Positions 4,072 through 52,005 of a stretch of 64,000 bases of DNA are shown piece by piece. The translations under genes were made by a program, and so were the position numbers. Numbering within the stretch: the first letter of the stretch is position 1; each line of letters starts with the position of its first letter. Below the pieces are notes generated by a model. That model saw only the letters and a program-made list of their open reading frames with translations. It made no database searches and was not told the origin of the DNA. Origin of the DNA: Candidatus Microgenomatus sp. (GTDB taxonomy: Bacteria; Patescibacteriota; Minisyncoccia; UBA6257; GWB1-50-10); NCBI GenBank assembly GCA_020724805.1, contig DYGI01000001.1, forward strand, positions 389,152-453,151, written 5' to 3'.

Positions 4072-4104
4072 ATGAAAAATTATATCATACAGGCACTTCA
4101 CCTC

Positions 4105-4246: not shown

Positions 4247-4252
4247 ACTTTA

Positions 4253-4912: not shown

Positions 4913-4920
4913 AAACTTTT

Positions 4921-4948
4921 TGCTGCGGGGCTTAAACGACGTTAGAAC
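4921..4948 (+). repeat. island-boundary element copy 2 (partial, core only)
   Basis: tgctgcggggcttaaacgacgttagaac, about 75% identical to 4216-4245. Its reverse complement ends CCCCGCAGCA, like the tRNA-Gln(CTG) 3' end. Confidence 0.6.
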
Positions 4949-5021
4949 TTATTTCCTTTCGACAAGTACCATTCATTAATAAAAATGGGTTCTACCCAAT
5001 TAGGGACATTGATTCTAATTA

Positions 5022-5528
5022 CTAAAAGACATAAATAACCTTTCCTATAATATCGTCTACCTGTTTAACGCCCAATATCGAATTCTCGTTATCACCTTTT
5101 TGGAACACCTCTCCATCGTTGAGATCAAAGCGTAAGATGGTGTCTGGTTTTATAATGTCCAACTCCGAAGCTGAAGAGTTTGGGAAAAGCGTTTTTTCTC
5201 CATTAACTGTGATAGTTTTATTTTCATCTATCACCACTTGATCGCCGGCGACACCGATAATCCTATGTATCCAGGGATCATAAACTGTTTCCTTCGTTAG
5301 CTTGTTTATAAGTGGCGTACCAAACATTACTATGTCGTTTCGTCTGACATTTGATAATAAGTAATGGATTCTACTTACCATCACGTAGCTTCCCTTATCA
5401 ATGGTTGGTTCCATTGAATCTCCTGCTACGTAGTGTATTGGGAAAAAAATTCTCACAAATAATCCAAGAAGAAAGAGAACCCCAATTACGTAGAAGGTGA
5501 ATCTTTTCCAAGGCTTTTTGGTCTGCAT
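5022..5528 (-). CDS. lepB: signal peptidase I (S26 family)
   Basis: N-terminal TM, catalytic Ser motif GDSMEPT, RIIGVAGD box. Confidence 0.8.
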   Translation of the reverse strand: MQTKKPWKRFTFYVIGVLFLLGLFVRIFFPIHYVAGDSMEPTIDKGSYVMVSRIHYLLSNVRRNDIVMFGTPLINKLTKETVYDPWIHRIIGVAGDQVVIDENKTITVNGEKTLFPNSSASELDIIKPDTILRFDLNDGEVFQKGDNENSILGVKQVDDIIGKVIYVF

Positions 5529-5549
5529 TGCTAGTTCTGCTTTATTTGA

Positions 5550-5819
5550 TTATAGGAAAAAATACGAAACGAAAGCCGAAAAGCTTGCCAGTAAATAACC
5601 AACTCCAGCAATGAAATTGATTGCCCGATTATCTTGGTTGAGAGTATCGAGGTATGCGTTAAAATCATTGATAAATTCTTCAATACCAAGTGGCACACCA
5701 TTAAAGGTTTTTACCCCTCCTTTATTTGAAAAGGGAGCGATTTTTTGAAAACTTCTCCAGAAATGATAAATCGCCAAAGCAAGAAATGAAAATGTAAATA
5801 TTATCCAAATGTACTTCAT
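5550..5819 (-). CDS. small membrane protein (hypothetical)
   Basis: Internal start MKYIWIIF; two TM helices. Confidence 0.4.
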   Translation of the reverse strand: MKYIWIIFTFSFLALAIYHFWRSFQKIAPFSNKGGVKTFNGVPLGIEEFINDFNAYLDTLNQDNRAINFIAGVGYLLASFSAFVSYFFL

Positions 5820-5972
5820 GGCTGGGAGGCTTGGGAGCGAACAACGCTCGTATTCACTCGCGTTCACAAAACCCTCGGTTTTGTGTCCACTATCGTTCAA
5901 TCCGACACGGAAGGGACACAAAAGGTTTCCCTTCCGACCCATCCCTCACTTAAATCGTCAGATTTAAGTCCA

Positions 5973-6002
5973 GATTCATGGCTTCAAAGGCCGCTGTCCT
6001 AT
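5973..6002. repeat. tRNA-Gln fragment (anticodon-arm region) duplicate
   Basis: agattcatggcttcaaaggccgctgtcctat matches tRNA positions 6068-6100 with one mismatch. Confidence 0.7.
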
Positions 6003-6046
6003 AGACAAGGGAGTGAGGAAATGGAAAGCGTCACTCCTGCGCACCG

Positions 6047-6117
6047 CTGGGAGGCTTGGGATCGAACCAAGATTCACGGCTTCAAAGGCCGCTGTCCTAC
6101 CATTAGACGACCTCCCA
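6047..6117 (-). tRNA. tRNA-Gln (anticodon TTG)
   Basis: Cloverleaf: acceptor TGGGAGG/CCTCCCA, D-arm GTCT/GGAC, anticodon loop CTTTGAA, T-arm CTTGG-TTCGATC-CCAAG, discriminator G. U1-A72 is typical of bacterial tRNA-Gln. Confidence 0.85.
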
Positions 6118-32099: not shown

Positions 32100-32232
32100 A
32101 TATTTTATTTTGGTGCGAGGATTCGAACAGGGAAGGGGTCGGGAAACCGTAGAAGAGAGGTTTCCCGTGCCGGAAGTACTGAAACCGAAGGGTTTCAGGG
32201 AGCGAGTGGATGAGAGCGACGTTCGATTCCCT
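32100..32232. repeat. tRNA 3'-end-derived fragments (recombination scar)
   Basis: 32100-32121 is the reverse complement of a T-loop plus acceptor 3' end (ccctgttcgaatcctcgcacca). 32205-32232 (gttcgattccctctcccgcgcacca) repeats the tRNA-Leu 3' end including CCA. Two 8-bp hairpins lie between. Neither fragment has a matching 5' acceptor or D-arm. Confidence 0.55.
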
Positions 32233-32263
32233 CTCCCGCGCACCATTTCGTTATAATGTGCCT

Positions 32264-33223
32264 ATGGCCGAAATGCACCGTTATGCAAGGTTTGTCCGAG
32301 CGCTTGTAACTACGGCATTCGTGCTTATACCCCTCGCAATTTTCGCGGGCATTTTTGTTTTTCAAAATGGGCAGCTCGCAAAAGAACGCGCACTCATAGA
32401 AGCCGAACGTCTTTCAAATGTCATCGCAGCGCAACAAATGCAACAATTCACGAATATTCGCAACCTCCTTATTAGTATCGCAAGCTACGCGGAAGTGGAG
32501 AATCGCGATGCGGAAGGTTGCAACCGCACGCTCGCTCTTCTTTTGGAACACGTTAATACTCCGACCTACACCTATCACAACCTTGGCATCGCGGATTCAA
32601 ACGGTCAGGTGTTCTGCAGCGCACTTCCCGCGGAACGTTCTGTAAACACGGCTGATCGGTATTATTTTCAGCGCGCGATGCAGACGCGCAGCTTTTCCAT
32701 CGGCGAGTATCAGATTGGGCGCATTACCGGAAAAGAATCGATAAATTTTGGCTACCCCGTACTTGATGAAAAGGGTGCGGCGACGTTTGTTATCTTTGCC
32801 GCAGAAAGTCTTGATGCTATTCACGAGCGCGCGAACCGCGTGCGCGGGGAGGGATATCCTATACTCATCATCACTGACCGAAACGGCACAATTTTGGTCC
32901 ACCCCGAATACCGGGAAGCGGTTGGAACACATTTCACCGAACATGAACGCATGCACAATGCTCCTTCCGGATCATTCTCGGCTATAGGTCCGGACGGCAC
33001 CGCCTATCTTTTTGGTTTCGCCACCCCCACCGTCGCCACTCAAGGCGACCACATCCATTTCATCATCGGAATCCCCCTTGTTCGTATTTCCGCATATCTC
33101 GATGATCAAATTGCCCGCTATGCTGAGTACTTTTTCGGGGCGATAGCGCTCTTCGGTGCGCTCGGTTGGTTTGTGAGTGATCGGTTGGTGCGGCGACTCC
33201 TCGCGCATAAAACTGTCAGTTAA
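32264..33223 (+). CDS. Cache-type extracytoplasmic sensor domain membrane protein without output domain
   Basis: N- and C-terminal TM helices flank a periplasmic domain of about 280 aa with a double PAS/Cache-like pattern. No kinase, MCP or GGDEF follows. Confidence 0.45.
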   Translation: MAEMHRYARFVRALVTTAFVLIPLAIFAGIFVFQNGQLAKERALIEAERLSNVIAAQQMQQFTNIRNLLISIASYAEVENRDAEGCNRTLALLLEHVNTPTYTYHNLGIADSNGQVFCSALPAERSVNTADRYYFQRAMQTRSFSIGEYQIGRITGKESINFGYPVLDEKGAATFVIFAAESLDAIHERANRVRGEGYPILIITDRNGTILVHPEYREAVGTHFTEHERMHNAPSGSFSAIGPDGTAYLFGFATPTVATQGDHIHFIIGIPLVRISAYLDDQIARYAEYFFGAIALFGALGWFVSDRLVRRLLAHKTVS

Positions 33224-34946
33224 GATCTTTTTTGATCTCTTCGAGCTCTTCTTCTACCGCAGTTTCGGCGGCATCCACGTCGTGTTTGAGATGAATGAGG
33301 ATTTTTTCTTCCTCTATCGTAAGTGCGCGTTTAGTTTTCGCACTTTCAAGAAGACGAAGGTGTTTCTTCATGGAAGCGCGTAATTTTTCGAATTCTTTTT
33401 TCACATCCCGTTCCGCGTCTTTAATGTCGCGCTGCACTTTTTTCTTGAATCCAAACATATTCCGCCACGCGAACCAGCAGATGCTCGCGAGGAACACGAG
33501 GAGTGCAATAATGGAAACAATAACCGTGAGAAGATTGATGGCGTAAGAGCCAATGCGGATGATGCTCGGACTTTCCACCGCGACGGTATAACGTGCACTC
33601 GGTGCGGTTTTGGCACCACGCGCATCCACCGCGTCTGCCCACAGTTCGTATACTCCCGCCGGAATTTCTCTATCGCCCGCGACAACGTAGTTCCCTTGCG
33701 CATCACTTGTGCCGTTGTAGAAGCGCGGCGTAATGCCCTCTCTCTCCAACCATACCGTCACGGTCGCATTCGGCACTGTGCGTCCGCGCACCGTAAGAAT
33801 ACCTCCAGGCTCGAGCGTTGAAGGATATGTGGTAATAACCGGCGCGGGGAGCTGTTGAATCACCACTTCCGAGAGCGCCGCTTGGTAATTCCCGGCACGA
33901 TCGAATGCTTGTACCAAAAGCGTTTGGGTCCCTCCTACAGTCGAAGGAAGTGTGTAGGGATTGTGCTCAACCTGTTCCGAAGAAACCACCACAAAATCCT
34001 GGTCGCCTATTTTTACCTTGTAGTATTCGATGCCAGATTCAGTGTCACGCGTATTGAACAGCACCACAGGGTTCGGGTTTGTGGAATCTTCTCCTTCTGC
34101 GAGCCTTATTTCGAATCGTTCAGGTGGTGTGGTATCCACTTGAAAACGGAAATGCGCCACTGCTCCCCAACCATTCGCGTTTCGGAATTGTGCGTGCAGG
34201 TAGTATGCACCATCGGAAACATCTTCTATTTTTTTCTCCGATATTGGTGGGTCATAGAGTACAGTTGGCGTCGTAAGTGGCGAAGTGTTGTAGAGAAGAC
34301 GTACTGCTGTCACGCCGCTCGGAACCTCCCACGTAAACTGTGGAGTCTTATTTGCATACCAGCGATCAGGATTGGGATGAGTCGGCGAAACGATACGGGG
34401 TGCGAGTGGCGCACCGGGCGGCGTGGGACTTGTGACATCTCCCGCGGTCGTACCGCCGATAGTGTATCCACCAGTGCCGAGCGAGGCGAGAATGTTCGTC
34501 CCCTGCCCATCGTTTGCGAGCACGCTCCCGCTCGTGAAACGAAGGTTTGCGACGCCATTTGCTTTTGTGCGGAACACAACGGTAATTACAGTACCATTCG
34601 CCCCGGCGTATCCGGGATTCAACACCACTCCTTCGAAGCTCACAGTCCCGGCTTCATTCGAAAACGACGGCTCCTGCACCCAGAGATTTACGATGGATCC
34701 AGTCTTCGATATAGACACAACCTCAAGGAGCGAGACGGGGAAAGATACCGTTCCGGACACCGCATTCATCGCCTGATCTGATGAATCAACCGCCACTCGC
34801 ACCGAAAACGTTTGACCCGCGGTGAACCCCCCGCTCCCCGGCACAAGCGTAAGCGTCGCCGCCTCCGCGGTTGGAAGTAGAATTATGGGCGAAACGAGCG
34901 CGAGCGCAATCCCTAATCCGCGCGCGAGCGATATTTTCTTTGCCAT
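33216..34946 (-). CDS. cohesin-like domain surface protein, C-terminal TM anchor and charged tail
   Basis: Signal peptide. The segment TLTLVPGSGG...VNAVSGTVSFPVSLLEVVSI...VFRTKANG... matches a cohesin beta-sandwich pattern. Ig-like repeats follow, then a TM and KK/EE-rich tail. Confidence 0.55.
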   Translation of the reverse strand: MAKKISLARGLGIALALVSPIILLPTAEAATLTLVPGSGGFTAGQTFSVRVAVDSSDQAMNAVSGTVSFPVSLLEVVSISKTGSIVNLWVQEPSFSNEAGTVSFEGVVLNPGYAGANGTVITVVFRTKANGVANLRFTSGSVLANDGQGTNILASLGTGGYTIGGTTAGDVTSPTPPGAPLAPRIVSPTHPNPDRWYANKTPQFTWEVPSGVTAVRLLYNTSPLTTPTVLYDPPISEKKIEDVSDGAYYLHAQFRNANGWGAVAHFRFQVDTTPPERFEIRLAEGEDSTNPNPVVLFNTRDTESGIEYYKVKIGDQDFVVVSSEQVEHNPYTLPSTVGGTQTLLVQAFDRAGNYQAALSEVVIQQLPAPVITTYPSTLEPGGILTVRGRTVPNATVTVWLEREGITPRFYNGTSDAQGNYVVAGDREIPAGVYELWADAVDARGAKTAPSARYTVAVESPSIIRIGSYAINLLTVIVSIIALLVFLASICWFAWRNMFGFKKKVQRDIKDAERDVKKEFEKLRASMKKHLRLLESAKTKRALTIEEEKILIHLKHDVDAAETAVEEELEEIKKDLN

Positions 34947-35827
34947 AGAAGCGGAGTACATGCGAGTACTATCAGTATAGCGAATCCGATGAGTGCGTCG
35001 CGCCACCCGTAAGAACCGCGTTCTGGCAATATCCCCACCACGCGTTCATTTCCCGCGCCATCCACCGCGCGAAGATAGACGTAGCTCCGCCGCGCCTGAT
35101 CACGGAGCACATACGGACTCGTTGCCGACTCCCACTCATCCTCGGAGATTGCTTTCCGTACGCGCGGCGATTCGAACACGGTGAAATATGAAATTCCTGT
35201 TTCTTTGTCGTGCGCATTCCATACCAGCATCCATTTTCCGTCCTCCGTATCCGCATCGCGCACGATCTCCGGGATGAACGCCTCCGGCGGATTACGATCA
35301 GAAATGCGAACCTCCGCATGATAAGGGGCTTCGTCGCTTACCATAACGGTCATGGAGCCGTTTGTCACGGCATCCTTTGTCCCAACACCGTCATGGAGAA
35401 GAACCGTGCCACTTTGCAGCGCCAACACGCCCTCACCTTCCTGGAGGGTTTGGAATTGTATCGTGAAAAGCCTCCCGGGTGTCGCATCGACTTGATATGG
35501 ACCCAGGATGCCGCTGAAACCACCAGGCATGATGCCACTCCAAAAGAGCTTTCCCGCCTCCACCACTCGCGGGCGTTCCACCCATACGCCCATAATGGAG
35601 TCCCGCTCATAAAACGCCTTCACCGAAAATAGATTTGGTGGAAACATTAGTTCGCCTTGTATGGCGTTCACTTCCCGTCCTTCCGCGTCTAAGACTACAT
35701 CCACCATGAACGTATCACCGGTCCGCACTTCTTGTAAAGTTCCAATTACGGAAATTACCGATGCCATTGTGGAGAATGGAGTCACGAATGCCAACGCAAG
35801 AAAAAATATGAGAAGATTTTTTCGCAT
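34913..35827 (-). CDS. cohesin-like domain surface protein (paralog), C-terminal TM anchor
   Basis: Signal peptide. VNAIQGELMFPPNLFSV...TIQFQTLQEGEG parallels the upstream cohesin-like domain. C-terminal TM. Confidence 0.5.
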   Translation of the reverse strand: MRKNLLIFFLALAFVTPFSTMASVISVIGTLQEVRTGDTFMVDVVLDAEGREVNAIQGELMFPPNLFSVKAFYERDSIMGVWVERPRVVEAGKLFWSGIMPGGFSGILGPYQVDATPGRLFTIQFQTLQEGEGVLALQSGTVLLHDGVGTKDAVTNGSMTVMVSDEAPYHAEVRISDRNPPEAFIPEIVRDADTEDGKWMLVWNAHDKETGISYFTVFESPRVRKAISEDEWESATSPYVLRDQARRSYVYLRAVDGAGNERVVGILPERGSYGWRDALIGFAILIVLACTPLLWQRKYRSRAD

Positions 35828-35829
35828 GA

Positions 35830-36845
35830 TTATCCCGTCCAGTAATATGCGAGAATACTGAAGTCAATGAGATCAATTTTCCGATCGGTGTTCAGATCGA
35901 CGTGCGTCGGTGGGGCGACACGTCGGTACCAATAGGCCATGACCGAAAAATCAACAAGGTTCACCCTCCGGTCGGCGTTTATATCACCCTTCGCCGAGGC
36001 CTCCCCGGTCTTCGCGAGCACATTCTTGGTGCCCACCGTAAAACCAGCCGCCCGACTGTAGCTCGAGAGGAGTTGATTTAAAAGGGTAGCTTTTGATTTT
36101 GCACTATGGGAACCATAGTCAAGCTCGCTCGTATCGAAATAATAGAGATAGGCGCCACCGGTATCCGCTTTTGTCTTCACCACTATTTCCTCTTCGGAAC
36201 CGACGGTGATGAGAATATCCGCGGCGGGTGCGCTTTGGCCGAATATAGTGATGGTGTCCCCACGTTTTACCTCTTCCTTATCCACCGCAATGGTCGGCGC
36301 GATAAAAATACCGCTTACATTCGTGGTGGCTCCCGCAGTGATGGAAACTGGGAAGGTGTGCAAACTAGAACGGTTGCCGTTTTTGTCCTCGCTGTAGAGA
36401 GAAAAAATATAATTTCCCGATGAGAGCCCTGAAACAGAAAGTGAGAATGAGCCATCGCTTCCTGCCGCGGCACTCGATACCACCGCCGCGTCTTTAAGAA
36501 GAGTGACTGCCCTTCCCGGATACGCGCGCCCGGAAAGCGTCACGCTCGCCGCCGGAGCAATATATCCTCCTCCCCCCCCTCCTCCCCCCCCCCCCCCCCC
36601 CCTCCGCCAGGCGGAGGCGTGGGAGGCGGTGGATCGGTTTCATCGTCATCCGCATACGAAGAACATCCGGGGTCGTTCGGATAATCTATTTCCCCGTCGC
36701 TGTCGTTATCAACACTATCACTGCACTCTGTCACCAGCACAGTCACCGATACGTTCGACGTTTCGGCGCGCACCGGAAACGGTGCATAAACAAGTGAAAA
36801 CCCGAAAAGGAGAATGAGGATTGTCGCGAACGCTCCTCTCTTCAT
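35830..36845 (-). pseudogene. dockerin-containing secreted protein split by a frameshift in a poly-G/poly-C homopolymer
   Basis: 36540-36845 encodes a signal peptide, an acidic region and a Pro/Gly linker. 35830-36543 (other frame, GTG pseudo-start) encodes an Ig-like domain plus two dockerin Ca-binding repeats (GDINADRRVNLVDFSVMAYW, VDLNTDRKIDLIDFSILAYYW). The frames join only across the C tract. Confidence 0.7.
36572..36602. repeat. homopolymeric tract (8 C, then cct, then 19 C)
   Basis: Directly counted; encodes poly-Gly on the minus strand; it is the site of the frame disruption. Confidence 0.9.
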
Positions 36846-37717
36846 TACCCTCGTGAGTATTTCTTCTTGATGAAAATGGCGATACCGCCGACCACCACCA
36901 ACCCCGCTGCGATGGTCGTTATTTCAAAGAAACCAAACGAACGTGCTACGACATTGAATACAGTCTTGAGCTCTCGTACTGACTGTCCGTTACGGTACAG
37001 CTTTGCGTCAGCCCAGTATTCCCCTATACCAAGCTTGATGTCTATCGGAAACTTGAGGGTAATGGTCTTCGTCTCGAACGCCGGCACTTCGGGAATATCC
37101 TCCGTCTGCGAGAACGCGAGCCTGATATCACCGAATTTATCGTAAAGATCGAAGGTAGCTCGCTCAGGCGCAATCGGGACATTTCCGGTATTCTCCAGTA
37201 CAAATTCTATCGCGGGAGGACTACCTTCTTCGATGTCGAGTATCTCCACTTTTTTTATCTGGAAATCGGCCACCACACCTTCTCCTACCGTAAGATTGAT
37301 ATCCACCCGCGCGCCCACAGAAATGGTCACCTGTTCTCCCGCTTCACGCGTAGGAATCGTGTTGATACGAAGATATCCCTGATAAATGCCGAAATCCGCG
37401 TCTTGGGGAACCTGCACGGTGACTACAATCGGAAATTGTTGAATGCCGGCCGGAATGGTGAATTCATTCCCTTTGTCTATCACAAACCACTTACTTATCT
37501 TCTCCGGCACATCAAGCGTTGCCTTGATATCCAAGTCTTCTTTTGGCTGGCCCTGCACCAAATAAATGGTCGTGTCAAACCTCGCTCCCGGCACTAACCG
37601 GTCGCTCCGAATGAAAGGCGGCGAGATACCGAATGCCGAAACGGAAAGGGGTACACCTATGGCCGCGATGGCAAAAAAAATAAGGGAGGAAATCGTTTGC
37701 CAAACTCTCGATTTCAT
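36845..37717 (-). CDS. cell-surface protein with signal peptide and C-terminal TM anchor (DUF916-like architecture)
   Basis: Signal peptide, beta-rich ectodomain, TM plus KKKYSRG tail. Confidence 0.45.
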   Translation of the reverse strand: MKSRVWQTISSLIFFAIAAIGVPLSVSAFGISPPFIRSDRLVPGARFDTTIYLVQGQPKEDLDIKATLDVPEKISKWFVIDKGNEFTIPAGIQQFPIVVTVQVPQDADFGIYQGYLRINTIPTREAGEQVTISVGARVDINLTVGEGVVADFQIKKVEILDIEEGSPPAIEFVLENTGNVPIAPERATFDLYDKFGDIRLAFSQTEDIPEVPAFETKTITLKFPIDIKLGIGEYWADAKLYRNGQSVRELKTVFNVVARSFGFFEITTIAAGLVVVGGIAIFIKKKYSRG

Positions 37718-37750
37718 TTCCCTTATCGTACTCCTCCCCGTGCCGTTTTA

Positions 37751-38701
37751 CTAGTCTCCGAAGATAGCGGTGAACGTGTTCGAACCGGTGTAACTTCCAG
37801 TCGGTTGGCCGCCAGGAACCGCGATACCCCAGTAGGTCGTGCTTGCCGTCTGGCTGGTGGAAGTAGTGGTCCTCCCGACATTGATGTTCCGCGCAGTCGG
37901 CGACGTGGAAAGGGTGTGGGTGAGCGAGGCGTATGCAGCAGAAGACGTACCGTACTTTTGTTGGCTCGCGAGAAGTGTGTCTCCGCCCGATGCCATGTTG
38001 GTACCGGAAAATTCAATATCAATGTTGTAATTTCCGGTGTTCGTTGTGGTTGCTACTTGGTTTGTGGAACCGGTGTCGGTGTTGGCGGGAACCGCTCCAT
38101 AGTTGATACTTGCAGTGACATCCAAAGCGTAGAGCGAGTTCAGTTCTACGGTTGCGGAAGATGTGGCGTTGCCGGTCGCAGCCGATTCATCGGTTGCGAG
38201 GACATAAGCGGCCCACCATTCGCTAGGAAACGTGGAACTCGCATCGGTCGCATCCGCAAAATACCACACCTTGATGGTACCGGATGCCGTTCCCGACGTA
38301 TCCGCACCGCCGGTGCAGGTGCCGCCTGCGTCCGCCATCGTAATGTTCCGATAACAATTCAATGCGTTATTACTGCATGAAGAGGTTCCTGACACGCCGG
38401 TGCGGTAAAGAACCGCGGAGAGAGTGCCGCTCGTAAACACGTCGCCGCAACCGTTCGCGTCGGTGATGTCCGCGGTAATGGTAATGGTGGTAGAGGTATT
38501 CTCGGTAAGTACGATGGGGTTGGGTGTTATTGCAACGTTCGCCACGGTCGGCGCGGCATTCCCTACGTCCACCGCAGTCGAAGCGGCATCGGCAAGAACC
38601 TGGGGTGATTCAAGAACGGCAAGCGAGATGCCAAGAAAAGCCCCCACGATGAGGGACGCTAGAATATAAGACCGCACAACAGAACCGAAGGCACTTTTCA
38701 T
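37751..38701 (-). CDS. secreted Thr/Ser-rich protein, paralog of the C-terminal ~300 aa of the giant protein
   Basis: Shares ...ENTSTTI...LNSLYAL..NTDTG...NTGN..ID... and the C-terminal PxGSYTGSNTF(T/E)AI(F/A)GD with 38761-43698. Confidence 0.5.
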   Translation of the reverse strand: MKSAFGSVVRSYILASLIVGAFLGISLAVLESPQVLADAASTAVDVGNAAPTVANVAITPNPIVLTENTSTTITITADITDANGCGDVFTSGTLSAVLYRTGVSGTSSCSNNALNCYRNITMADAGGTCTGGADTSGTASGTIKVWYFADATDASSTFPSEWWAAYVLATDESAATGNATSSATVELNSLYALDVTASINYGAVPANTDTGSTNQVATTTNTGNYNIDIEFSGTNMASGGDTLLASQQKYGTSSAAYASLTHTLSTSPTARNINVGRTTTSTSQTASTTYWGIAVPGGQPTGSYTGSNTFTAIFGD

Positions 38702-38760
38702 ATGGTTTATATTATCTTAGTTACACTATACCAAACCGATCTTCTCTTCCTTGTGTATAA

Positions 38761-41700
38761 CTAGTCCGCAATGGCCTCGAACGTGTTGCTACCAGTATAA
38801 CTTCCCGGTATCTTCCCGCTCGGTACGAAAAGTCCCCAGAATACATCGTCGGTCACTGGTGTTTCCGAAGTCGGTTTGGCAAGATCTATCTCGAGCCGCG
38901 TGAGCGCGCCCGAAAGTGTGGCGCACACCGTGCAAGAAGAATAAGTGAAGGTGGAGGTCGCATATTTTTGATTGTCTGCGGTGATGGTAAATCCGCCGTT
39001 CGCCATGCTTGTACCGGAAAGATTTACGTCGATGGCGGCATTCCCCGTATTCGTCACGGTAGTAGTTTGCGTAGCCGCACCAGTGTCGGTATTGGGATTG
39101 AGAGATCCATAGCTTATCGCGCCGGTAACGTTCAGCGCATAGAGCGTGTTAAGCTCCACGCCACTCGCGGTCGACGAGGCGCCGGTGTCGCCTATCACAT
39201 CCCCCACCGTCATGTGACCTTGCCAGTTTTGAGCGCTGAAGGAACCTACGTCGGTCGGGTCTGCGAAATACTGGATTTTCGCGGAACACGTAAAGTCGCA
39301 GCTGTTCCCGGAACAGTTTGATTTTGCGCAACTCGTGGACGCTATACGATAGCAACTATTCTGGTCCGCGGTACATGACGCTCCTACGCCCGATCGGTAG
39401 ATAACCGAGGTGGCATACGCGATGTCAGCATTGCCGTCCACGTCGGTTGCGGTGCCGGTGAGATCGATAGTGGTGGAGGTATTCTCGATGAGCGTAATGG
39501 AGCTCCCGCCGTTCAGCGTAATTGCCGAAGCGGTGGGCGCCGCATTGGACGCCTCAACGACCGCGATGGAAGGATACCCACACACCGCGTCAGAACAATC
39601 ATTCGAACCGTCGGCATCTTGCTCGCGGAACACAGGAGTGAGTTGGTCGTTATCGTACGCACGGAAATAGTATGTAAGGCCGGACGTCGCATTTTCTGCT
39701 TTCAAAGGATAGTCATATTCCACGAGCGCGAGTGCGTTGTGATCCATGTTCGCGCCCGCCGCCGCATCTTTGTCGGAAAGATAAGTACCGCTCTGCGTGC
39801 TTCCCGTAAGACGCTGTGCGCCGATTGCAGTATTGTCGCTACAATTCGCACACGTTTCTCCCGCCGTCGCATAACGCCAAATCGCGCCGCTTTCAGCGGT
39901 ATCGCCCACATCGGTCCACGTAGAAGTGGCGATATCAGGATTATCGGTGGTCCACTGGAGTTTTTTTCTAGCGTCGGTCTGAGCGATGCCTGCAAGTTCG
40001 GCGAATTGGAAACGTAATCGCACAAAGTCGTCGAGCGAAACGTTGGGAGTCGCATTCTCCGCCACACCGAGCGCGTCGGACGAGTTATCGGGATCGTTCT
40101 CGGCGATGTCGCCATAAAAGCGCCAATTTCGTGACCACGGCGAATAGGGTTTTGCCACGACCCAAAATGGTCGCCCCTCGCCGACGGTGCCATTTGAAAT
40201 AGTAAGCGGTGCGAGCGCATCTTCGCCCGCCGAGCTGCATCCGGTCGTATCCCACCCGGTAAAGCCCCCACCGCCCCACGCGCCGCCGTTACAGTCCGAG
40301 TCGCTATCGCGACCGGTCGCAAAAATTTCATTCGTATTTGGATGCGGGGTAAGTTGTATTGCGAGCGCATCGTCGCCCATATTTGTGGCGATGTCGGTGA
40401 TTGCGGAAAATCCCGTTCCTTCTATCCAGGTCTGCCACGCACTCGCATCGCTCGCAGAACTCAGCGAGCCAATATAGAAAGCTTGCACGTTGGTATTGAG
40501 CGATTCCATACCTACATTCGCGTGCTGCGCCCACACCGGGTCCGATGATGCCCACTGGTTCCCGATGGTCATGGTTGGTGAAGCGCCGCCGGTCCAGATG
40601 TATGGTTGAATGCGACAGTTGGTGCCGGTTGAACAGTTATTGCCCACCGTCGTCGCGGAGTTGCCAATGATGGCGATATGGTCCTTTCCGCTCACCGGCG
40701 CCGCTTTTGCCGCCATCCAATGACCGATACTTGAGAGCGCAATCGCGGGAAGTGCGGTGCCGGTGGAATCCCAGGAGAGAGTCGAACGCGTCCAGCGCTT
40801 ATAGCGGTAGGGTGTAGTGGTTGCGGTCGTACCTTCTGACCATACGATAAGCGCATTACCGGTAGTTTCTTCCCATGCGCCATCAAAATTTTGCGTCTGA
40901 AAAGTGGAAGCGGTCGCAGTGATTGAGGTGGTTGCCGTCCATGAGGAACCGTTCCAAATACCCGCGAAGATATCGGAGTTTGCATCCGAAGTGATGACGA
41001 GTACTTCGTCCGAGCGGCTCCCTTTCAGCATCTCACCGCGCGGAATGAGGCGGACCCACCGGATGGCGCCGCTCCCGCCAGTGGACATAGTGCTCGGCGC
41101 GGAGCTTGTGGCTGGTGACCAGCTCGTGCCGTCCCATGTGCGATAGGCAAGGCGTCCCGCCGTCGTGCTCGCGAATGCGACTATTGCCTCGCCGGAAAGC
41201 TGCTCGTACGCAATATCGAACGCACCCCAGCACGAACCGAATGTAGTCGCATCACAGGTTTGTGCGGTGGTGACCGCCGCGTTATCAAATTGGAGCGCCG
41301 CATCTCCTGCAGCATCTTGCCCTCCGATTATTTTTGATATTGCAACCGCGCCGTCTGCTTTAATGACACCCGCAATGATCTCGTCCCGGGTCGGCGCATG
41401 TGCGCCTTTTACGAACCCGACCGCGGAAGCGGTTCCTACCGGTCCTAAAAGTTCACCGCCAGTGGTGTTCGAGGCGCCGGTCGCCCACAAAAGGCGCCCT
41501 TGGTTGTTGGTGGCACCATAAAATGTCCGTGCTGAAAGTGATGCGACCGCATCCGCAGCAATCTGCCATCGACGCGTTTCACGAAAATCTCCCACCCGGA
41601 GCGGTCCTAAAAGGTAGAACTGTGGACTTATCTCGGGAGCTAGATAATCGTATGAGAGAGTAACCTTCTCCCCTTCCGCAAGAGTGAGCACCCACCGGAT

Positions 41701-43698
41701 TATGCGTTCGCCGCCACGATCTACCACAACGCCTCCATGCGAAATGTGTTTTACCTGGAACGAGCTTGGCACTCGCTCTTCCACGTCTCCTGAGAACGCT
41801 TCCGTGGCACCCACGGTAATGTGCACCGGATACGGTACGGGAGGATAAATGCGCGTCGCCGATACGCGCGCGACATCGAAAGGCACCGACTCGCGGACTT
41901 CGAAAGAGTCATAGACGGTATGGGCGCCGTTCGCGGTCGTGGCAGTGAGCTTTGTTTTATAGACGCCTGTCTCTTCCACCGCGTATGAAGTCTCATAATC
42001 CGGCTTTTCCGTATAGGCTTTTATGCGGCACTCAGGATTCACCGAAATGTTTCCACCGGAGGTTGTCAGCACTCTCACCTCTCCCGCAGGCGTAGTGATG
42101 CTCAACTCGACATTCGCATCGCAGACCATGTTCCCGCCATCATCCAGAACCGCGATACCTATCAAAGAGGTTTCCCCCGGCAGATAGACGGACTTGTCAG
42201 GGTTCATTGCGAGAACTCCCCACGTGAATTCATTTTCGGTGTAATACACCACTCCATTGCGCCACACCCACACCCGGAGAGAATATTTCCCAGGCACAAA
42301 CTGGTCGGAAGGTTGGGGCACGTTCACGCGCAATCGATTGTTCGCAAGTAAAACTTGTGGACGTATGTCAGCTTCCTCGTCTCCGCGACTGAACACTTTT
42401 GCCACTACGGGATTCGCCGCCGTAGGGAGCGGCGGCGTTTCCGTTTCGGTTTCCTGCGCGTGAACGAATTTTCCGATACCAAGCCAACGCATGATACGGG
42501 TAGCAAGGGAAACTTGAGGGGGAGGCGGACGGAAAGAGGATGGAGAAATTTCGTTTTCTTGAACGGGGGTGAGCGCGTCAAGGTCCAGTTCAAAACTTGG
42601 CGCTTCATCCGCGGTGAACGAGGGAACCTCTCCTTCTCTTAGTATCACGTCGATTGCGGCGGCTGGAACCACAGGAGTTGCGCTCTCCGATGCCGACACT
42701 GGATTCTCCGTTTGGTTTGCATCGCTCGTAATGAGGGGAGGTATTTCGTAATGAACCTCGAGAAGCATTCCGTCCAAAAGCACCTTGGGAAGCATAGGAA
42801 GTGCCGCAGAGATTCCCTCGATGCCAATCTGAACGCGGGCGAGGTCCTCCCACGCGGTGAGAGGCAACGGAACGGTAAGGTGCGGGACCATTTCTTCGGA
42901 AACGTCTGCGAGTGCGAACCAATTAGTGCCGTCTAAGCTATAACTCACACGTAAAAATGCCGGTGAAGGTGGAGGAAGCGAAGCGGTAATCTCTTCGGAA
43001 AGAACACTTTCCTCAGTTGATGAAGAAACGGCATTTTCCTGGGTGATGGGCGTTGTTGTTTCTTCTGCGACGGTCGAAGTGGGAGCATCAGAGGAGATGG
43101 GTGATTCCGGTTCGACCGCGATTGGCTCAGGTTCCGCAACTGTCGGTGCCGACTCAGGTTTGGGAGAAACTTCTTCTTGCGCATACACTATGTCAAAAAT
43201 GGGAAAACGAAATGCTCCACTCGATGTGGATGAAGCAACTTCGTTCTCCGAGGTTGTCGCCTCTTCCATGAGCGGCACCTCGGAAAGTGCGGCTTCAGTG
43301 CTCCATACGAGCGTAAGCCCCACATTTGTGATGGCTCCCTCCCCTTTAAATTCCTCCGGAATGAAATTTCCACAGAATATCTGGCTTGTGGCACCGGTGA
43401 ACGTCGCGGAGACATTAGTGGTGAGTGGTACGTCCGTACCGAAGGTCTCGGGAATTCCCTGCGCGAACGAAGGATTATCCCACGTGCCAAGACATGTCGT
43501 TGCATAAAAATCGGAGATTTCCGCGCGAGTAAAGAGAGTTTGCGTGCCAAAAGTGATAAGAATTACCAACACAACACCAACGCCCGCAATAAACGGGAAC
43601 CGTCGATGGACCGGGGGTCGCAGGTTCACCACTTCATGTTTTCCACGATGAACCTCAACGACACCTCTCCGCCCCGCATTTCGCCATGAGGTGTGCAT
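38761..43698 (-). CDS. giant (1645 aa) N-anchored extracellular protein
   Basis: Single N-terminal TM, Glu/Pro/Thr-rich linker, multiple beta-rich domains, C-terminal module shared with 37751-38701. Confidence 0.6.
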   Translation of the reverse strand: MHTSWRNAGRRGVVEVHRGKHEVVNLRPPVHRRFPFIAGVGVVLVILITFGTQTLFTRAEISDFYATTCLGTWDNPSFAQGIPETFGTDVPLTTNVSATFTGATSQIFCGNFIPEEFKGEGAITNVGLTLVWSTEAALSEVPLMEEATTSENEVASSTSSGAFRFPIFDIVYAQEEVSPKPESAPTVAEPEPIAVEPESPISSDAPTSTVAEETTTPITQENAVSSSTEESVLSEEITASLPPPSPAFLRVSYSLDGTNWFALADVSEEMVPHLTVPLPLTAWEDLARVQIGIEGISAALPMLPKVLLDGMLLEVHYEIPPLITSDANQTENPVSASESATPVVPAAAIDVILREGEVPSFTADEAPSFELDLDALTPVQENEISPSSFRPPPPQVSLATRIMRWLGIGKFVHAQETETETPPLPTAANPVVAKVFSRGDEEADIRPQVLLANNRLRVNVPQPSDQFVPGKYSLRVWVWRNGVVYYTENEFTWGVLAMNPDKSVYLPGETSLIGIAVLDDGGNMVCDANVELSITTPAGEVRVLTTSGGNISVNPECRIKAYTEKPDYETSYAVEETGVYKTKLTATTANGAHTVYDSFEVRESVPFDVARVSATRIYPPVPYPVHITVGATEAFSGDVEERVPSSFQVKHISHGGVVVDRGGERIIRWVLTLAEGEKVTLSYDYLAPEISPQFYLLGPLRVGDFRETRRWQIAADAVASLSARTFYGATNNQGRLLWATGASNTTGGELLGPVGTASAVGFVKGAHAPTRDEIIAGVIKADGAVAISKIIGGQDAAGDAALQFDNAAVTTAQTCDATTFGSCWGAFDIAYEQLSGEAIVAFASTTAGRLAYRTWDGTSWSPATSSAPSTMSTGGSGAIRWVRLIPRGEMLKGSRSDEVLVITSDANSDIFAGIWNGSSWTATTSITATASTFQTQNFDGAWEETTGNALIVWSEGTTATTTPYRYKRWTRSTLSWDSTGTALPAIALSSIGHWMAAKAAPVSGKDHIAIIGNSATTVGNNCSTGTNCRIQPYIWTGGASPTMTIGNQWASSDPVWAQHANVGMESLNTNVQAFYIGSLSSASDASAWQTWIEGTGFSAITDIATNMGDDALAIQLTPHPNTNEIFATGRDSDSDCNGGAWGGGGFTGWDTTGCSSAGEDALAPLTISNGTVGEGRPFWVVAKPYSPWSRNWRFYGDIAENDPDNSSDALGVAENATPNVSLDDFVRLRFQFAELAGIAQTDARKKLQWTTDNPDIATSTWTDVGDTAESGAIWRYATAGETCANCSDNTAIGAQRLTGSTQSGTYLSDKDAAAGANMDHNALALVEYDYPLKAENATSGLTYYFRAYDNDQLTPVFREQDADGSNDCSDAVCGYPSIAVVEASNAAPTASAITLNGGSSITLIENTSTTIDLTGTATDVDGNADIAYATSVIYRSGVGASCTADQNSCYRIASTSCAKSNCSGNSCDFTCSAKIQYFADPTDVGSFSAQNWQGHMTVGDVIGDTGASSTASGVELNTLYALNVTGAISYGSLNPNTDTGAATQTTTVTNTGNAAIDVNLSGTSMANGGFTITADNQKYATSTFTYSSCTVCATLSGALTRLEIDLAKPTSETPVTDDVFWGLFVPSGKIPGSYTGSNTFEAIAD

Positions 43699-43762: not shown

Positions 43763-44710
43763 TTATTGGGAAGAGATGTACTGATACGCTTTCTCTGCCA
43801 CTAAATGCATGAATTCTTTTACTTTTTCTTCTTCACCTTCGGTTCCCTCTCCCCCCACGGCTACCGATATGAGAAAAGGGCGCCCTTCCACATAAACAAT
43901 CCCGGAATCGAGGTAGGCGTGACGCTCGCGATCGATACCGAACTTGTGCGGAAAAGGAACCTCACGAGGAATTCCTCCCGCAAGAAATTCTCGGTAATTC
44001 GCCGCCGCGAGCATGGAAAGAATAAGCTCGGAGTTCTCACGCTTCAAAAAACTTGAAGTGTAGAGAGATCGAAAGAGCCGTGAATATTCTTTCGCACTTA
44101 CGAGTCCGTCGATGGTGAAAAGCTCATCGAGGCCAAGCTCTCCAATGACCGCCTCCAACTCTCGGCTATCGATTCGGCGAAGAAAAGCGCGGTAGGCGGT
44201 ATTATCGGAATCCTTGAGCATGGCCTTTAAAAGCTCTTCTACGGTAAAAACCGTTCCCGCCGGCACGCCGGCGAGTCTTCCATAACGCGAATCGCGGTCA
44301 TCTTCTTGGATCGAGAATTTATCGGTGAGTTCCCATTCTCCCCGCTCGATCTTTTTCGCTACCGCAAGCGCCATCGGCACCTTCGGGAGAGATGCGGGCC
44401 AGACGCGGACGTCTTGGTTAATAGAAATGTTTGCACCGCTGTTCAGAAATTCAAAGTAGAGAGAAACCTGGCGAGGGTGTTCCCACCGCACGAGATCTCG
44501 CAGTTCTTCGCGTAATGGCTGGAGGTTCACAATAAAGTTCTCTTGCGCGATGAAGTTGCGGGCCGGGTCAATGAGCGGGTATTCTTCGAGCGCATCATTA
44601 ATGGAAAGAGAACTAGTCGCCCATCCTATTGCGACGCCCGCGAACGCCAACCCTAAGAACAAAGTTGCCACCTTCCAACGATTTATGGATAGGAATGACA
44701 TAATATCCAA
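43763..44710 (-). CDS. class A beta-lactamase-related serine hydrolase
   Basis: N-terminal TM/signal, SDN loop (KDSDNTA), candidate SxxK (SLPK); the KTG box is degenerate (KFG). Confidence 0.45.
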   Translation of the reverse strand: MDIMSFLSINRWKVATLFLGLAFAGVAIGWATSSLSINDALEEYPLIDPARNFIAQENFIVNLQPLREELRDLVRWEHPRQVSLYFEFLNSGANISINQDVRVWPASLPKVPMALAVAKKIERGEWELTDKFSIQEDDRDSRYGRLAGVPAGTVFTVEELLKAMLKDSDNTAYRAFLRRIDSRELEAVIGELGLDELFTIDGLVSAKEYSRLFRSLYTSSFLKRENSELILSMLAAANYREFLAGGIPREVPFPHKFGIDRERHAYLDSGIVYVEGRPFLISVAVGGEGTEGEEEKVKEFMHLVAEKAYQYISSQ

Positions 44711-49053: not shown

Positions 49054-49124
49054 TGCGGGATCGTCTAATGGTAGGACGTCTGGCTCTGAACCAGAAAATT
49101 GGGGTTCGATTCCCTGTCCCGCAG
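49054..49124 (+). tRNA. tRNA-Gln (anticodon CTG)
   Basis: Acceptor TGCGGGA/TCCCGCA, D-arm GTCT/GGAC, anticodon loop CTCTGAA, T-loop TTCGATT, discriminator G. Confidence 0.8.
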
Positions 49125-49261
49125 CATTAGGACTAAATAGTCCTAAAATACCCACCGGAGAGGTGGGGTTCGCGTTTTAGTACGACTCCGTGTACGTTTT
49201 TTCCCTTTTCGGCATTCCTACCCCCGTTATATTCTCCTCTCGGCACTCTTAGAGTCTGAAG

Positions 49262-49593: not shown

Positions 49594-50280
49594 ATGACGG
49601 AAAAAATCTTCGTTCAAAGATTAAAAAAGATTTTTAAGCAGGACGGATACCTCGTTAGAGAGGAAATCGGTGTGGGGCACGGTATAGCAGATTTAGTTTT
49701 AATTAGGGGCAGCAGGATCAACCAACGACACGTCGAGCTAAGAAAAAGCTATCGCCAGTTGTCTCCTCTGCTTAAGGAAGAGTATTTCCGCACGCTAAAT
49801 GTAATACCCGATCAGCCAGGGAAAGCATCGCTAGATCTAATTGTAAAAAAAACCCACTTATCCAAGCCTTATCTGAAATACTCCATCCTTAGAACGCTTG
49901 AGAAAAAGGGATATATCAAGTCGAACGGAGAGAACCATTATTTTAAGATTAACGGTTGGGTTCCACTAACAAGCGAACTAATTGCAGTGGAAGCAAAACT
50001 AAAGGACTGGAAAAGAGGACTCATCCAAGCGAATCGATATAAGATCTTTGCAAACAAAGTTTATTTGGCAATTCCTTCCTCTCATGCTCACCTCGTGGAC
50101 AGAAAGATGTTGAGAAAACATGGAATCGGACTAATCACATTAGATATAGTGAGCGGGAAGAAAAATATCCCACTCCGTGCAAGTCATAATATACCCGCGA
50201 ATTTACCTCGCAGTAACTTTGCAGTTGAACATTTCTGGGGAAAACAGATCTACAAACGAGCAGAGGCGCGGCCAATCTAG
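49594..50280 (+). CDS. hypothetical protein, possible PD-(D/E)xK-fold nuclease with central wHTH
   Basis: GHGIADLVLI ... IAVEAKLKDW fits a D...ExK arrangement; weak. Confidence 0.35.
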   Translation: MTEKIFVQRLKKIFKQDGYLVREEIGVGHGIADLVLIRGSRINQRHVELRKSYRQLSPLLKEEYFRTLNVIPDQPGKASLDLIVKKTHLSKPYLKYSILRTLEKKGYIKSNGENHYFKINGWVPLTSELIAVEAKLKDWKRGLIQANRYKIFANKVYLAIPSSHAHLVDRKMLRKHGIGLITLDIVSGKKNIPLRASHNIPANLPRSNFAVEHFWGKQIYKRAEARPI

Positions 50281-50714
50281 GATATTTTCGAAAACGCTTG
50301 AGTAAACTTTTCGGGAGATATTGTGCGCACGTCTCCAAACCTTCCTATATCAAGTAAATCTCTATCGCGGGTGATGATAATTTTTGCGGCGCAAGTCCTC
50401 GCAACTCTTACGTATTCATCATCGTCAGGGTCCCTCTGAATGTAGCGTGCTAACTTCTCAGTGGAATTCGGCTCTACCATATTTACGAATGCTCTATAGT
50501 CCAAGATAATTTTTTCAGGACTAAATATTTGCCTTTTCAGATATTTCTGAAGCCTACCAATCTGAATTTTTTCGCAGAACTCTTGGTAGGTCGCCGAACT
50601 GCCGAATATTAATATTCTTTTTTCTAGCGCCCAATTAATAATTCTTCTTGTTGGGCCAGGCGTCCCCAACATACCCGAAATGAGAATGTTCGTATCCGGC
50701 ACTACCTTGATCAT
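50277..50714 (-). CDS. PIN-domain nuclease (TIGR00305-like toxin family)
   Basis: N-terminal VVPDTNILISGML and conserved acidic residues (..ARTCAAKIIITRDRDLL). Start overlaps the stop of the TGT-like gene by 4 nt. Confidence 0.7.
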   Translation of the reverse strand: MIKVVPDTNILISGMLGTPGPTRRIINWALEKRILIFGSSATYQEFCEKIQIGRLQKYLKRQIFSPEKIILDYRAFVNMVEPNSTEKLARYIQRDPDDDEYVRVARTCAAKIIITRDRDLLDIGRFGDVRTISPEKFTQAFSKIS

Positions 50715-51880
50715 GAGTCAAGCTCGGATAGTAACGTTTTCAGTTCGTCATCATCACCAGGAAACTCCCATGTCTTTGCCAAATCTAGAACAGCCTTCCA
50801 ACGAGGAAGGTAGGCTGTCTTTACCCCAATGGCGCGAGACCGCAACTTCGAAGTTAACTGAATAGCATCATCGACCCGCTTAGACAGGACACTTATCCGT
50901 TTCTCTTTCGTTAAATTTTGAAGAGATTGAACACTTGATAATCTCGTGTGAAGAAAGTGTAGCTTTTTAGCCGCCACTTCTTTGGGGTATGACCCACCAC
51001 ACGCCGGACAATTACAGGAGTATTTTATCTTCTTCAGATCTTGATCGTTGAGATAATCAAAAATCTCCGGCACGTATGTTTTTTCGATTCGCTTACTCCA
51101 TCCCTTAGGCGTACTTTGAAGATTCTTCACGACGAACATTTCTCCCGCTGCCAGACCGCTTCCAAAGCCGCTTGCACCTACTGCACAAAGAACCTCACCA
51201 AATGGACCGATTTTATTGGCAAAGACCACACTCCCCTCCGAGAGACGGAATGCTAAGCGGGCAAATTCTAAGAGTGAGTCTTGGTCGGCACTTTCACAAT
51301 CTAGATCATTTATCACAACTATATAACCGTCTAACGAGTCACGAAAATCCTCTTTATACCTATCAATGATGTAATTGATGACCGTGGGTCGATTAAGAAT
51401 AGAGCTTCCCAATTTCAGCATCGCAAAAACCGGAATTTCTTGTTTTGTCTCCTGAAGATAGCGCAACGTTTCTGACAGCATGGAAATATTAACACCAAAT
51501 TTTAGGTCGTCGGTATCTTCACAAAAAAAATAAGGAGCTATCATTACTGATGCCTGTTTACGGAACTGGTCTTGTACGGCAATCTGAACAATCTTCTCCT
51601 TACGAAAACCGGGGTCACTGTAAACTTTTTCCGCGTTAACTTCATTTGGATATCCCAGTCTTTTAAAATTCTCCCCTTCACTCGCATCCTTGAATAGCAG
51701 GATGTCTGTCGAGGGGTCTATGATAAATACGTCTGATATCGCCCTTAATTTCTCAGCGACTTTTGGACGCCACTCCGAATGTCTTGTATCCATAAGCACG
51801 GCAGGAAAGCGGAATCCTAGTGATTCCAAGTGTCCGTCCTGTGCATTCGGCAAAAAGATTGGTGTTTTCGGTATCAACAT
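50711..51880 (-). CDS. tRNA-guanine-transglycosylase (TGT) superfamily-like zinc-binding protein (DpdA/TGT-like); catalytic Asp possibly missing
   Basis: N-terminal KTPIFLPN resembles TGT ETPCFMPVGT. LDGYIVVINDL resembles FDGYAVGGLAVGE. C-terminal CNCPAC-(13 aa)-HFLH resembles the TGT zinc site CDCYTC...YLHHL. The GIDMFDCV nucleophile region aligns to GEMFVVKN. Confidence 0.45.
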   Translation of the reverse strand: MLIPKTPIFLPNAQDGHLESLGFRFPAVLMDTRHSEWRPKVAEKLRAISDVFIIDPSTDILLFKDASEGENFKRLGYPNEVNAEKVYSDPGFRKEKIVQIAVQDQFRKQASVMIAPYFFCEDTDDLKFGVNISMLSETLRYLQETKQEIPVFAMLKLGSSILNRPTVINYIIDRYKEDFRDSLDGYIVVINDLDCESADQDSLLEFARLAFRLSEGSVVFANKIGPFGEVLCAVGASGFGSGLAAGEMFVVKNLQSTPKGWSKRIEKTYVPEIFDYLNDQDLKKIKYSCNCPACGGSYPKEVAAKKLHFLHTRLSSVQSLQNLTKEKRISVLSKRVDDAIQLTSKLRSRAIGVKTAYLPRWKAVLDLAKTWEFPGDDDELKTLLSELDS

Positions 51881-52005
51881 TCTTCGTTCTTTCTATTAGA
51901 GAAGATTGTCGGTACAAAATATACAATAAAATTCCTTGCTTGGAAAGCGTTATGTATCGCCGCTATTTAGAACACCCCCTCGGTAGGGGGTGTTCTGTCT
52001 GGCGC

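Follow-up and report, generated by a model that had tools for sequence, protein, structure and literature searches.

What does a bacterium with a small genome build when it encodes a dockerin protein, two cohesin-like proteins and several further surface proteins side by side? The question is raised by six co-directional minus-strand genes at 33216-43698 of a 64,000-nucleotide stretch of DNA from Candidatus Microgenomatus sp. (contig DYGI01000001.1, positions 389,152 to 453,151), called the window throughout; every one of their products is exported or anchored. We number the genes G1 to G6 by increasing coordinate, G6 being the most upstream. An earlier note, written from the letters of the window alone, had taken the block for a self-assembling cell-surface scaffold held together by cohesin-dockerin pairing. 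The interpretation that we prefer, and in which we place moderate confidence, is that G3, G2 and G1 form a conserved docking module, the dockerin of G3 binding the cohesin of G1 and possibly that of G2, and that G4, G5 and G6 form an exchangeable surface cassette. The evidence that can be read directly consists of folds, motifs, topology signals, synteny and the pattern of conservation, and it is presented in that spirit below.

G1 and G2 carry a divergent cohesin fold

All six genes that the earlier note had listed as encoding exported or anchored proteins are present, and the corresponding targeting signals were seen in a hydropathy scan. N-terminal signal-like segments were detected in G1, G2, G4 and the head open reading frame (ORF) of G3 (G3a), and C-terminal transmembrane segments in G1, G2 and G4, while G5 has an N-terminal hydrophobic helix and G6 an N-terminal anchor at amino acids (aa) 34-52. 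G1 and G2 are type-I membrane proteins with a cohesin at the membrane-distal tip. G1 starts at MAKKISL, and the protein is identical to that of the called gene P0001; a 596-aa ORF reaching 35006 was set aside as merely the longest possible reading.

Searches of PDB sequences returned no cohesin, and the relationship of the G1 and G2 N-terminal domains to cohesins came to light only by fold search. The G1 domain (aa 27-172) was modelled with AlphaFold2 (AF2) as an all-beta structure with a predicted local distance difference test score (pLDDT) of 93.6 and a predicted template modelling score (pTM) of 0.86. When this model was compared with the PDB by Foldseek, the best 41 matches were all cohesins at probability 1.00, and they included types I, II and III as well as non-cellulosomal cohesins. 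The best match was 2vn5_C (E=5e-9, TM-score 0.74), TM-scores among the matches reached 0.78, and the top neighbours were type I cohesins such as 2vn5, 1g1k and 4dh2. Pfam Cohesin (PF00963) matches 14 of 26 orthologous G1 N-terminal domains when these are scanned singly at E<=1 (best E=1.4e-7), and several G1 orthologues come with PF00963 already assigned and are named 'cohesin domain-containing protein' by NCBI. The N-terminus of G2 is 31% identical to that of G1 (E=7e-16) and scores 138.7 bits against a hidden Markov model (HMM) of the G1 cohesin. Since the modelled fold, the PF00963 matches of orthologues and the homology of G2 to G1 point the same way, we conclude that G1 and G2 both carry a divergent but genuine cohesin fold. 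This bears out the description of two C-terminally membrane-anchored proteins with cohesin-like domains: the G1 model superimposes on solved cohesins, G2 is homologous to it, and the transmembrane segments are seen in both.

Behind its transmembrane segment G1 has a cytoplasmic tail with the consensus ...LEKxxxKRxLTEEEEKI..., which is highly charged and unusual for a surface-anchor protein. Its only matches, weak and of coiled-coil type, are ATP synthase b and ApoE; such a tail hints that G1 has a partner in the cytoplasm.

G3 is a secreted dockerin protein, split as assembled at a run of G

The earlier note had assigned a canonical tandem dockerin to this cluster, and the assignment holds. 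Pfam Dockerin_1 (PF00404) scores 24.3 bits against a cutoff of 22.9 at aa 185-232 of the 237-aa tail ORF of G3, the family dockerin HMM scores 101.8 bits on G3, and PF00404 scores 33.0 bits on the G3 orthologue of a more distant locus (L006). The module consists of two duplicated F-hand segments, DINADRRVNLVDFSVMAYWY and DLNTDRKIDLIDFSILAYYW, with Ca2+ ligands at positions 1, 3, 5, 9 and 12 and a helix after each. Both Ca2+ loops, DINADRRVNLVD followed by FSVMAYWY and DLNTDRKIDLID followed by FSILAYYW, are intact and follow the pattern D-x-N-x-D-x3-N/D-x2-D. The two halves are about 65% identical to each other, and the second segment, with the C-terminal ...DFSI.A..WTG, is nearly invariant across 69 orthologues. 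Upstream of the dockerin, Pfam recognises immunoglobulin (Ig)-like domains of the Big_6/Big_13 type. G3 is a secreted protein that lacks its own anchor.

The six consecutive genes of the earlier note are six genes, but seven ORFs as assembled, because G3 is frameshifted at a 19-G homopolymer. The two G3 ORFs differ only by the change of frame at this run, and one additional G, or two fewer, would fuse them. Two other assemblies of the same organism break at the run: a 570,864-bp JGI contig that carries these genes begins exactly within it, its version of the sequence departing from the window at 6 nucleotides (nt), and the run is also where a Logan contig ends. The 69 G3 orthologues examined are all single ORFs (315-787 aa), and G3 is intact in the two closest relatives (L088 and L089, with a G1 77% identical to that of the window), at 344 and 348 aa. 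Since the orthologues are single ORFs and two other assemblies break at the same run, the frameshift is most likely a homopolymer assembly error. The 19-G run could also reflect slipped-strand phase variation specific to this lineage, which would act as an on/off switch. Nearly all of the 69 orthologues contain a poly-Gly linker, 8-21 residues long, for which they use mixed GGN codons and no long homopolymer. Because other lineages encode the Gly run with mixed codons, the sequences indicate that the poly-Gly tether is a real, conserved feature of the protein.

The three genes are conserved as a unit across Patescibacteria

The window comes from a Patescibacterium whose closest named relatives are Jorgensenbacteria and Paceibacterota, and the length of the carrying contig (570,864 bp) agrees with the small genome that the earlier note had supposed. 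In a scan of one genome per GTDB species, at least 559 stretches proved to contain a gene for a G1 relative; synteny was then scored with family HMMs in 80 fetched loci and in those collected earlier. The G1 family comprised 763 matches, with relatives 43-77% identical across Patescibacteria, and the record titles of the stretches name Jorgensen-, Wolfe-, Colwell-, Portnoy-, Sung-, Doudna-, Komeili-, Magasanik-, Campbell-, Zambryski-, Taylor-, Vogel- and Uhrbacteria. In 76 of 83 loci, G2 is the immediate upstream neighbour of G1. The complete order G3-G2-G1 on one strand was found in 64 loci, that is, in about 64 of the 64 that are informative in having enough upstream DNA. Among the lineages represented by these loci are Jorgensen-, Wolfe-, Colwell-, Magasanik-, Uhr-, Komeili-, Doudna- and Portnoybacteria.

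Conservation within this triad is uneven. Its most conserved parts are the dockerin of G3 and the cohesin of G1, with mean pairwise identities across 66 complete triads of 62% and 55%; the Ig stalk of G3 follows at 50%, G1 outside its cohesin at 38% and the cohesin of G2 at 33%. Pairwise distances of the dockerin follow those of the G1 cohesin (r=0.57) and of the G2 cohesin (r=0.39), but hardly those of the rest of G1 (r=0.05). The correlated divergence of dockerin and G1 cohesin is suggestive of a pairing between them. Within the window, the family HMMs find exactly one dockerin and two cohesins.

The upstream genes form an exchangeable cassette

The remaining three products fit the earlier description of an anchored protein (G4), a Thr-rich secreted protein (G5) and a giant N-anchored protein (G6), as judged by hydropathy and composition. 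G5 contains 16.5% Thr and 12% Ser, and its AF2 model (pLDDT 92.7) shows two complete beta-sandwiches whose fold neighbours are only generic Ig/Fn3 domains. Its 70 relatives have no Pfam family; among them there is no WxL match, and there is one WxLIP_PGBD match at chance level (E=0.27). The central 941 aa of G6 have 2542 representative homologues, many of them in giant Patescibacteria proteins of up to 7926 aa, and weak MG2-like matches are the only ones that this part and its homologues give. G4 has no Pfam match, WxLIP_PGBD (PF06030) included, and neither WxL nor WxLIP is found among the 25 commonest of the 80 Pfam families of its 77 relatives. When the G4 family profile was aligned by hhalign with the positional homologue of a more distant locus (L007), it matched with a probability of 94.8% (E=5e-8), and that homologue itself matches WxLIP_PGBD (DUF916) at 34.7 bits against a cutoff of 27.3. 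The ectodomain of G4 may thus consist of two Ig-like domains and be a remote relative of DUF916/WxLIP-type proteins. In about 19 of 54 loci the next gene upstream of G3 encodes a G4-like membrane-anchored protein, and the link to the triad is therefore frequent but not obligatory.

In 28 of 36 related loci, the genes two and three places upstream of G3 encode proteins with a C-terminal domain in common, as G5 and G6 do, and this shared domain of a small and a large protein comes in several types that cannot be recognised from one another. In the closest relatives the triad is retained at 55-77% identity beside a cassette of another type: where the window has G5 and G6, L088 (3819-8037) and L089 (275-3873) encode a small/large pair of 198 aa and 654 aa that neither BLAST nor HMMs relate to G5 or G6, and G4 has only a weak match there. 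Since close relatives share the triad yet carry another small/large pair, the comparison of sequences indicates that the cassette has been replaced beside a stable triad. Ten variant cassette proteins, five small ones among them, gave no WxL or WxLIP match in a Pfam scan.

The arrangement of G4 to G6 recalls the WxL/Csc clusters of Gram-positive bacteria, in which the WxLIP protein has the architecture DUF916-DUF3324-transmembrane helix (PMC10599100, PMC1534035). A WxL cluster comprises at least one WxLIP and at least two WxL proteins encoded by adjacent genes (Hassan et al., PMC10599100), and in it the WxL domain occurs both in a small protein and at the C-terminus of a large one, alongside a WxLIP that combines two Ig-like domains with a transmembrane helix (PMC10599100). 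G5 and G6 show the same relation, with a small protein that corresponds to the C-terminal domain of the adjacent large one; they are followed by G4, with a signal peptide and a C-terminal transmembrane helix, and the positional homologue of G4 in L007 passes the WxLIP_PGBD cutoff. Unlike WxL clusters, however, the cassette is joined to a cohesin-dockerin triad, which those clusters lack, and the WxLIP profiles miss G4 and are not among the 25 commonest Pfam families of its 77 relatives. Nor were the two WxL-domain proteins found: Pfam WxL (PF13731) has no match at E<=1 in G5, in G6, in the 70 relatives or in the five variant small proteins. Because Pfam WxL never matches the cassette proteins, WxL membership of G4 to G6 is not established.

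A proposed docking module and its alternatives

Cohesin-dockerin binding, its stoichiometry and any biological role of the block are what we infer from sequences and gene neighbourhoods, and the mechanism would run as follows. G1 and G2 would be held in the membrane by their C-terminal transmembrane helix, with a stalk of Ig domains projecting through the envelope. The anchorless, secreted G3 would plug its C-terminal, Ca2+-dependent dockerin into the membrane-distal cohesin of G1, and might also dock on that of G2, the short paralogue of G1. Because the two dockerin halves are so similar, dual-mode or bridging binding would be compatible with the sequence. The small, variable head of G3 would thereby be displayed at the end of the stalk on a flexible poly-Gly tether. 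Upstream, G6 and G5 with their common C-terminal domain, together with the membrane-anchored, Ig-like G4, would make up a swappable surface cassette, which is probably the part that faces the environment or a host.

The earlier note had seen in the whole cluster an apparatus for attachment to a host. For the triad this is doubtful: because identities of 43-77% are kept across class-level lineages, its sequence is more in keeping with a core or housekeeping cell-envelope complex than with a host-specific adhesin. It is G4 to G6 that change fast, and this cassette is a better candidate than the triad for contact with a host or the environment.

A number of observations weigh against the docking module as we propose it. 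PF00963 has no match to G1 or G2 of the window, even at E<=1, and single-domain and family-profile searches of PDB sequences with both proteins returned no cohesin. The earlier note had named failure of the cohesin profile as refuting its cohesins; the profile does fail on these two proteins, but this outcome is overturned by the 14 of 26 orthologues that it matches and by the fold search. Shared phylogeny and unequal rates among the segments confound the mirror-tree correlations, and with two cohesins to one dockerin the stoichiometry is ambiguous. G3 is frameshifted as assembled, and might therefore be off or a pseudogene in this genome. Finally, nothing in the evidence ties the complex to a host.

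The cohesin-fold modules might instead bind glycan, peptidoglycan or each other, in the manner of carbohydrate-binding modules (CBMs), with the dockerin serving as a Ca2+-stabilised module for some other partner, for instance the cell wall or a protein encoded elsewhere, and with the adjacency of the genes reflecting a shared envelope function. The failure of Pfam Cohesin on the G1 and G2 of the window would agree with this, as would the generality of the cohesin fold, which is a jelly-roll, and the far lower conservation of the G2 cohesin (33%) relative to the dockerin (62%). We nevertheless consider it unlikely, as all 41 of the top 41 structural neighbours are dockerin-binding cohesins and not CBMs, the triad is strictly adjacent in about 64 loci, and no other modules are as well conserved as the dockerin and the G1 cohesin, which diverge in a correlated way.

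A different emphasis would make the six-gene block a fibre-like or S-layer-like structure, in which G5 and G6 are the main subunits, assembled in a pilin-like or WxL-type wall-bound manner, and the triad is only a membrane anchor. The recurrence of a small/large pair with a common C-terminal domain in 28 of 36 loci, the position of G4-type membrane-anchored Ig proteins between this pair and the triad, the one positional homologue of G4 above the WxLIP_PGBD cutoff and the agreement of the layout with the WxL cluster definition (PMC10599100) can all be read in this way. It is quite unlikely in our judgement: WxL and WxLIP are absent from the 25 commonest of the 80 Pfam families of the 77 G4 relatives, the 70 G5 relatives have no WxL and a single chance WxLIP_PGBD match (E=0.27), and the variant cassettes have no match. 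G5 consists of two complete beta-sandwiches with only generic matches, and only about 19 of 54 loci have a G4-like gene as the immediate upstream neighbour of G3. A miniature cellulosome-like system for tethering enzymes that degrade polysaccharides would account for the presence of cohesin and dockerin modules and for type I cellulosomal cohesins being the best structural matches, yet we regard it as highly improbable and rejected it, because enzymes and CBMs are missing: no catalytic or CBM domain occurs in any of the six proteins, G3 presents merely a small head on an Ig stalk, and the 64-kb window encodes one cohesin per protein, a single dockerin and no multi-cohesin scaffoldin. On this point the earlier note, which had stated that the cluster was not a cellulosome, was right.

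Relation to known systems

Cohesin-dockerin pairs that do not belong to cellulosomes are known as a general concept, and a 2009 survey by Peer et al. reportedly covers cohesin-dockerin modules outside cellulosomes in general. The G1 model is close to several such cohesins, with TM-scores of 0.73/0.76 for that of Archaeoglobus fulgidus (2xdh) and, for those of Clostridium perfringens toxins and glycosidases (2jh2, 2vo8 and 2w1n), of 0.63-0.70 by query and 0.67-0.75 by target. Like these pairs, the module described here has single cohesin and dockerin modules outside cellulose degradation and a dockerin with canonical paired Ca2+ loops. Unlike them, it places its cohesins at the tip of membrane-anchored type-I proteins, one of which (G1) has a cytoplasmic coiled-coil tail, its dockerin protein G3 carries no enzyme, and its three genes form a fixed operon that is conserved across a radiation of reduced-genome bacteria.

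The best structural neighbours are cellulosomal type I cohesins, namely those of C. cellulolyticum (2vn5/2vn6) and of OlpA and OlpC of C. thermocellum (3ul4/4dh2), with E of about 5e-9 and TM-scores of 0.72-0.78. OlpA and OlpC, like G1 and G2, are single-cohesin proteins for anchoring at the cell surface, and the internal symmetry of the G3 dockerin, with its two similar loop-helix segments, resembles that of dockerins with a dual binding mode. However, sequence identity to the cellulosomal proteins is 12-24%, anchoring is by a transmembrane helix, and there are no SLH domains, sortase, scaffoldin repeats or enzymes.

Among Patescibacteria, the Saccharibacterium Southlakia epibionticum has a dockerin-domain envelope protein, SEML1_0315, that is essential by transposon sequencing (Tn-seq; PMC10633639); such modules can therefore be core parts of the envelope in this group. 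Like G3, SEML1_0315 combines a dockerin-like module with Ig-like domains in one surface protein; its gene (927 aa), however, stands alone between a hydrolase gene and a tRNA gene and is not in a triad. We set it aside as a comparable system, since it has no triad, and cite it as context only. Full-text literature searches returned no description of the triad in Patescibacteria, Parcubacteria or the candidate phyla radiation (CPR). Thus, while non-cellulosomal cohesin-dockerin pairs are already known, their arrangement in three genes of Patescibacteria is new to the literature searched.

A large part of bacterial diversity falls within the Patescibacteria, most of which presumably live in attachment to other cells, yet outside Saccharibacteria their envelope machinery is almost uncharted. 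The triad is a candidate core envelope complex that is directly testable, as its modules are small, soluble and easily expressed and their binding should be sensitive to EDTA. It also provides a stable genomic landmark beside a fast-exchanged cassette, in which determinants of host range might be sought, and it would widen the use of cohesin-dockerin modules from enzyme scaffolding to a conserved structural role. A bolder and rather doubtful extension is that the block represents an undescribed, near-universal, envelope-spanning organelle of Paceibacteria/ABY1-type Patescibacteria, in which a Ca2+-dependent docking joint couples the coiled-coil tail of G1 to the tethered head of G3 and offers a socket for WxL-like G4 to G6 products that set host or substrate specificity; the 19-G tract could add an on/off switch to such a device.

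Gene layout and neighbourhood

The features of the block are collected in Table 1. Distances between neighbouring genes range from a 34-nt overlap, where the end of G2 overlaps the start of G1, to a spacer of 59 nt, and with such overlaps and short spacers the genes form one operon-like block. Scans of the region for promoters and terminators were uninformative.

Table 1. Coordinates of the genes and modules in the window
Feature	Coordinates	Strand	Content or evidence
G1, long cohesin membrane protein, 576 aa	33216..34946	-	signal peptide, cohesin, Ig-like domains (Big_13), transmembrane helix, cytoplasmic coiled-coil tail
G1 cytoplasmic charged coiled-coil tail, aa 498-576	33219..33455	-	consensus conserved in 94 orthologues
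G1 transmembrane segment, aa 472-497	33456..33533	-	hydropathy score 2.96
G1 cohesin module, aa 27-172	34431..34868	-	AF2 model and Foldseek
G2, short cohesin membrane protein, 304 aa	34913..35827	-	signal peptide, cohesin, one Ig-like domain, C-terminal transmembrane helix
G2 cohesin module, aa 21-165	35333..35767	-	homology to G1 N-terminus, G1-cohesin HMM
G3, secreted dockerin protein	35830..36845	-	signal peptide, acidic Cys-loop head, Pro/poly-Gly linker, two Ig-like domains (Big_6), C-terminal dockerin
G3 tail ORF, 237 aa	35830-36543	-	Ig domains and dockerin
G3 dockerin module	35833..35991	-	two Ca2+-binding loops and helices; Pfam PF00404, family HMM
G3 head ORF, 101 aa	36540-36845	-	signal peptide and head
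19-G homopolymer, G3 frameshift site	36584..36602	-	in poly-Gly linker codons
G4, 290 aa	36845..37717	-	signal peptide, putative beta-sandwich ectodomain, C-terminal transmembrane helix
G5, Thr/Ser-rich exported protein, 316 aa	37751..38701	-	two beta-sandwich domains behind N-terminal hydrophobic helix
G6, giant N-anchored protein, 1645 aa	38761..43698	-	
G6 C-terminal domain, aa 1381-1645	38764..39558	-	G5 paralogue; match at G6 aa 1381-1643, 43% identity over 275 aa, E=2e-42

Downstream of the block and convergent with G1, with an 8-nt overlap of the ends, lies a plus-strand gene (32210-33223) for a dCache_1-like sensor protein with two transmembrane segments and no output domain. Among 68 loci from the genome scan and the earlier set that have enough downstream DNA, this neighbour recurs only in L006, and it was rejected as a member of the system on account of this single recurrence; the gene is also found in the two closest relatives, L088 and L089. 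Directly upstream of G6, a minus-strand gene (43763-44710) encodes a beta-lactamase2-like (PF13354-type) membrane-anchored protein, a homologue of which (30% identity, E=1e-45) lies at the matching edge of the cluster in L006. In the more distant loci L006 (2934-5720) and L007 (3486-6265), the cluster is preceded by a conserved methyltransferase-like gene (about 170 aa) and by genes for two small membrane proteins (144-166 aa), all three of which are absent from the window.

Elsewhere in the window, G+C content falls to 0.41-0.43 at 4001-6000 and at 50001-52000, as against a typical 0.51-0.57, and these stretches could be islands or insertions. A tRNA-Gln gene lies near each of them (6046-6117 and 49054-49125).

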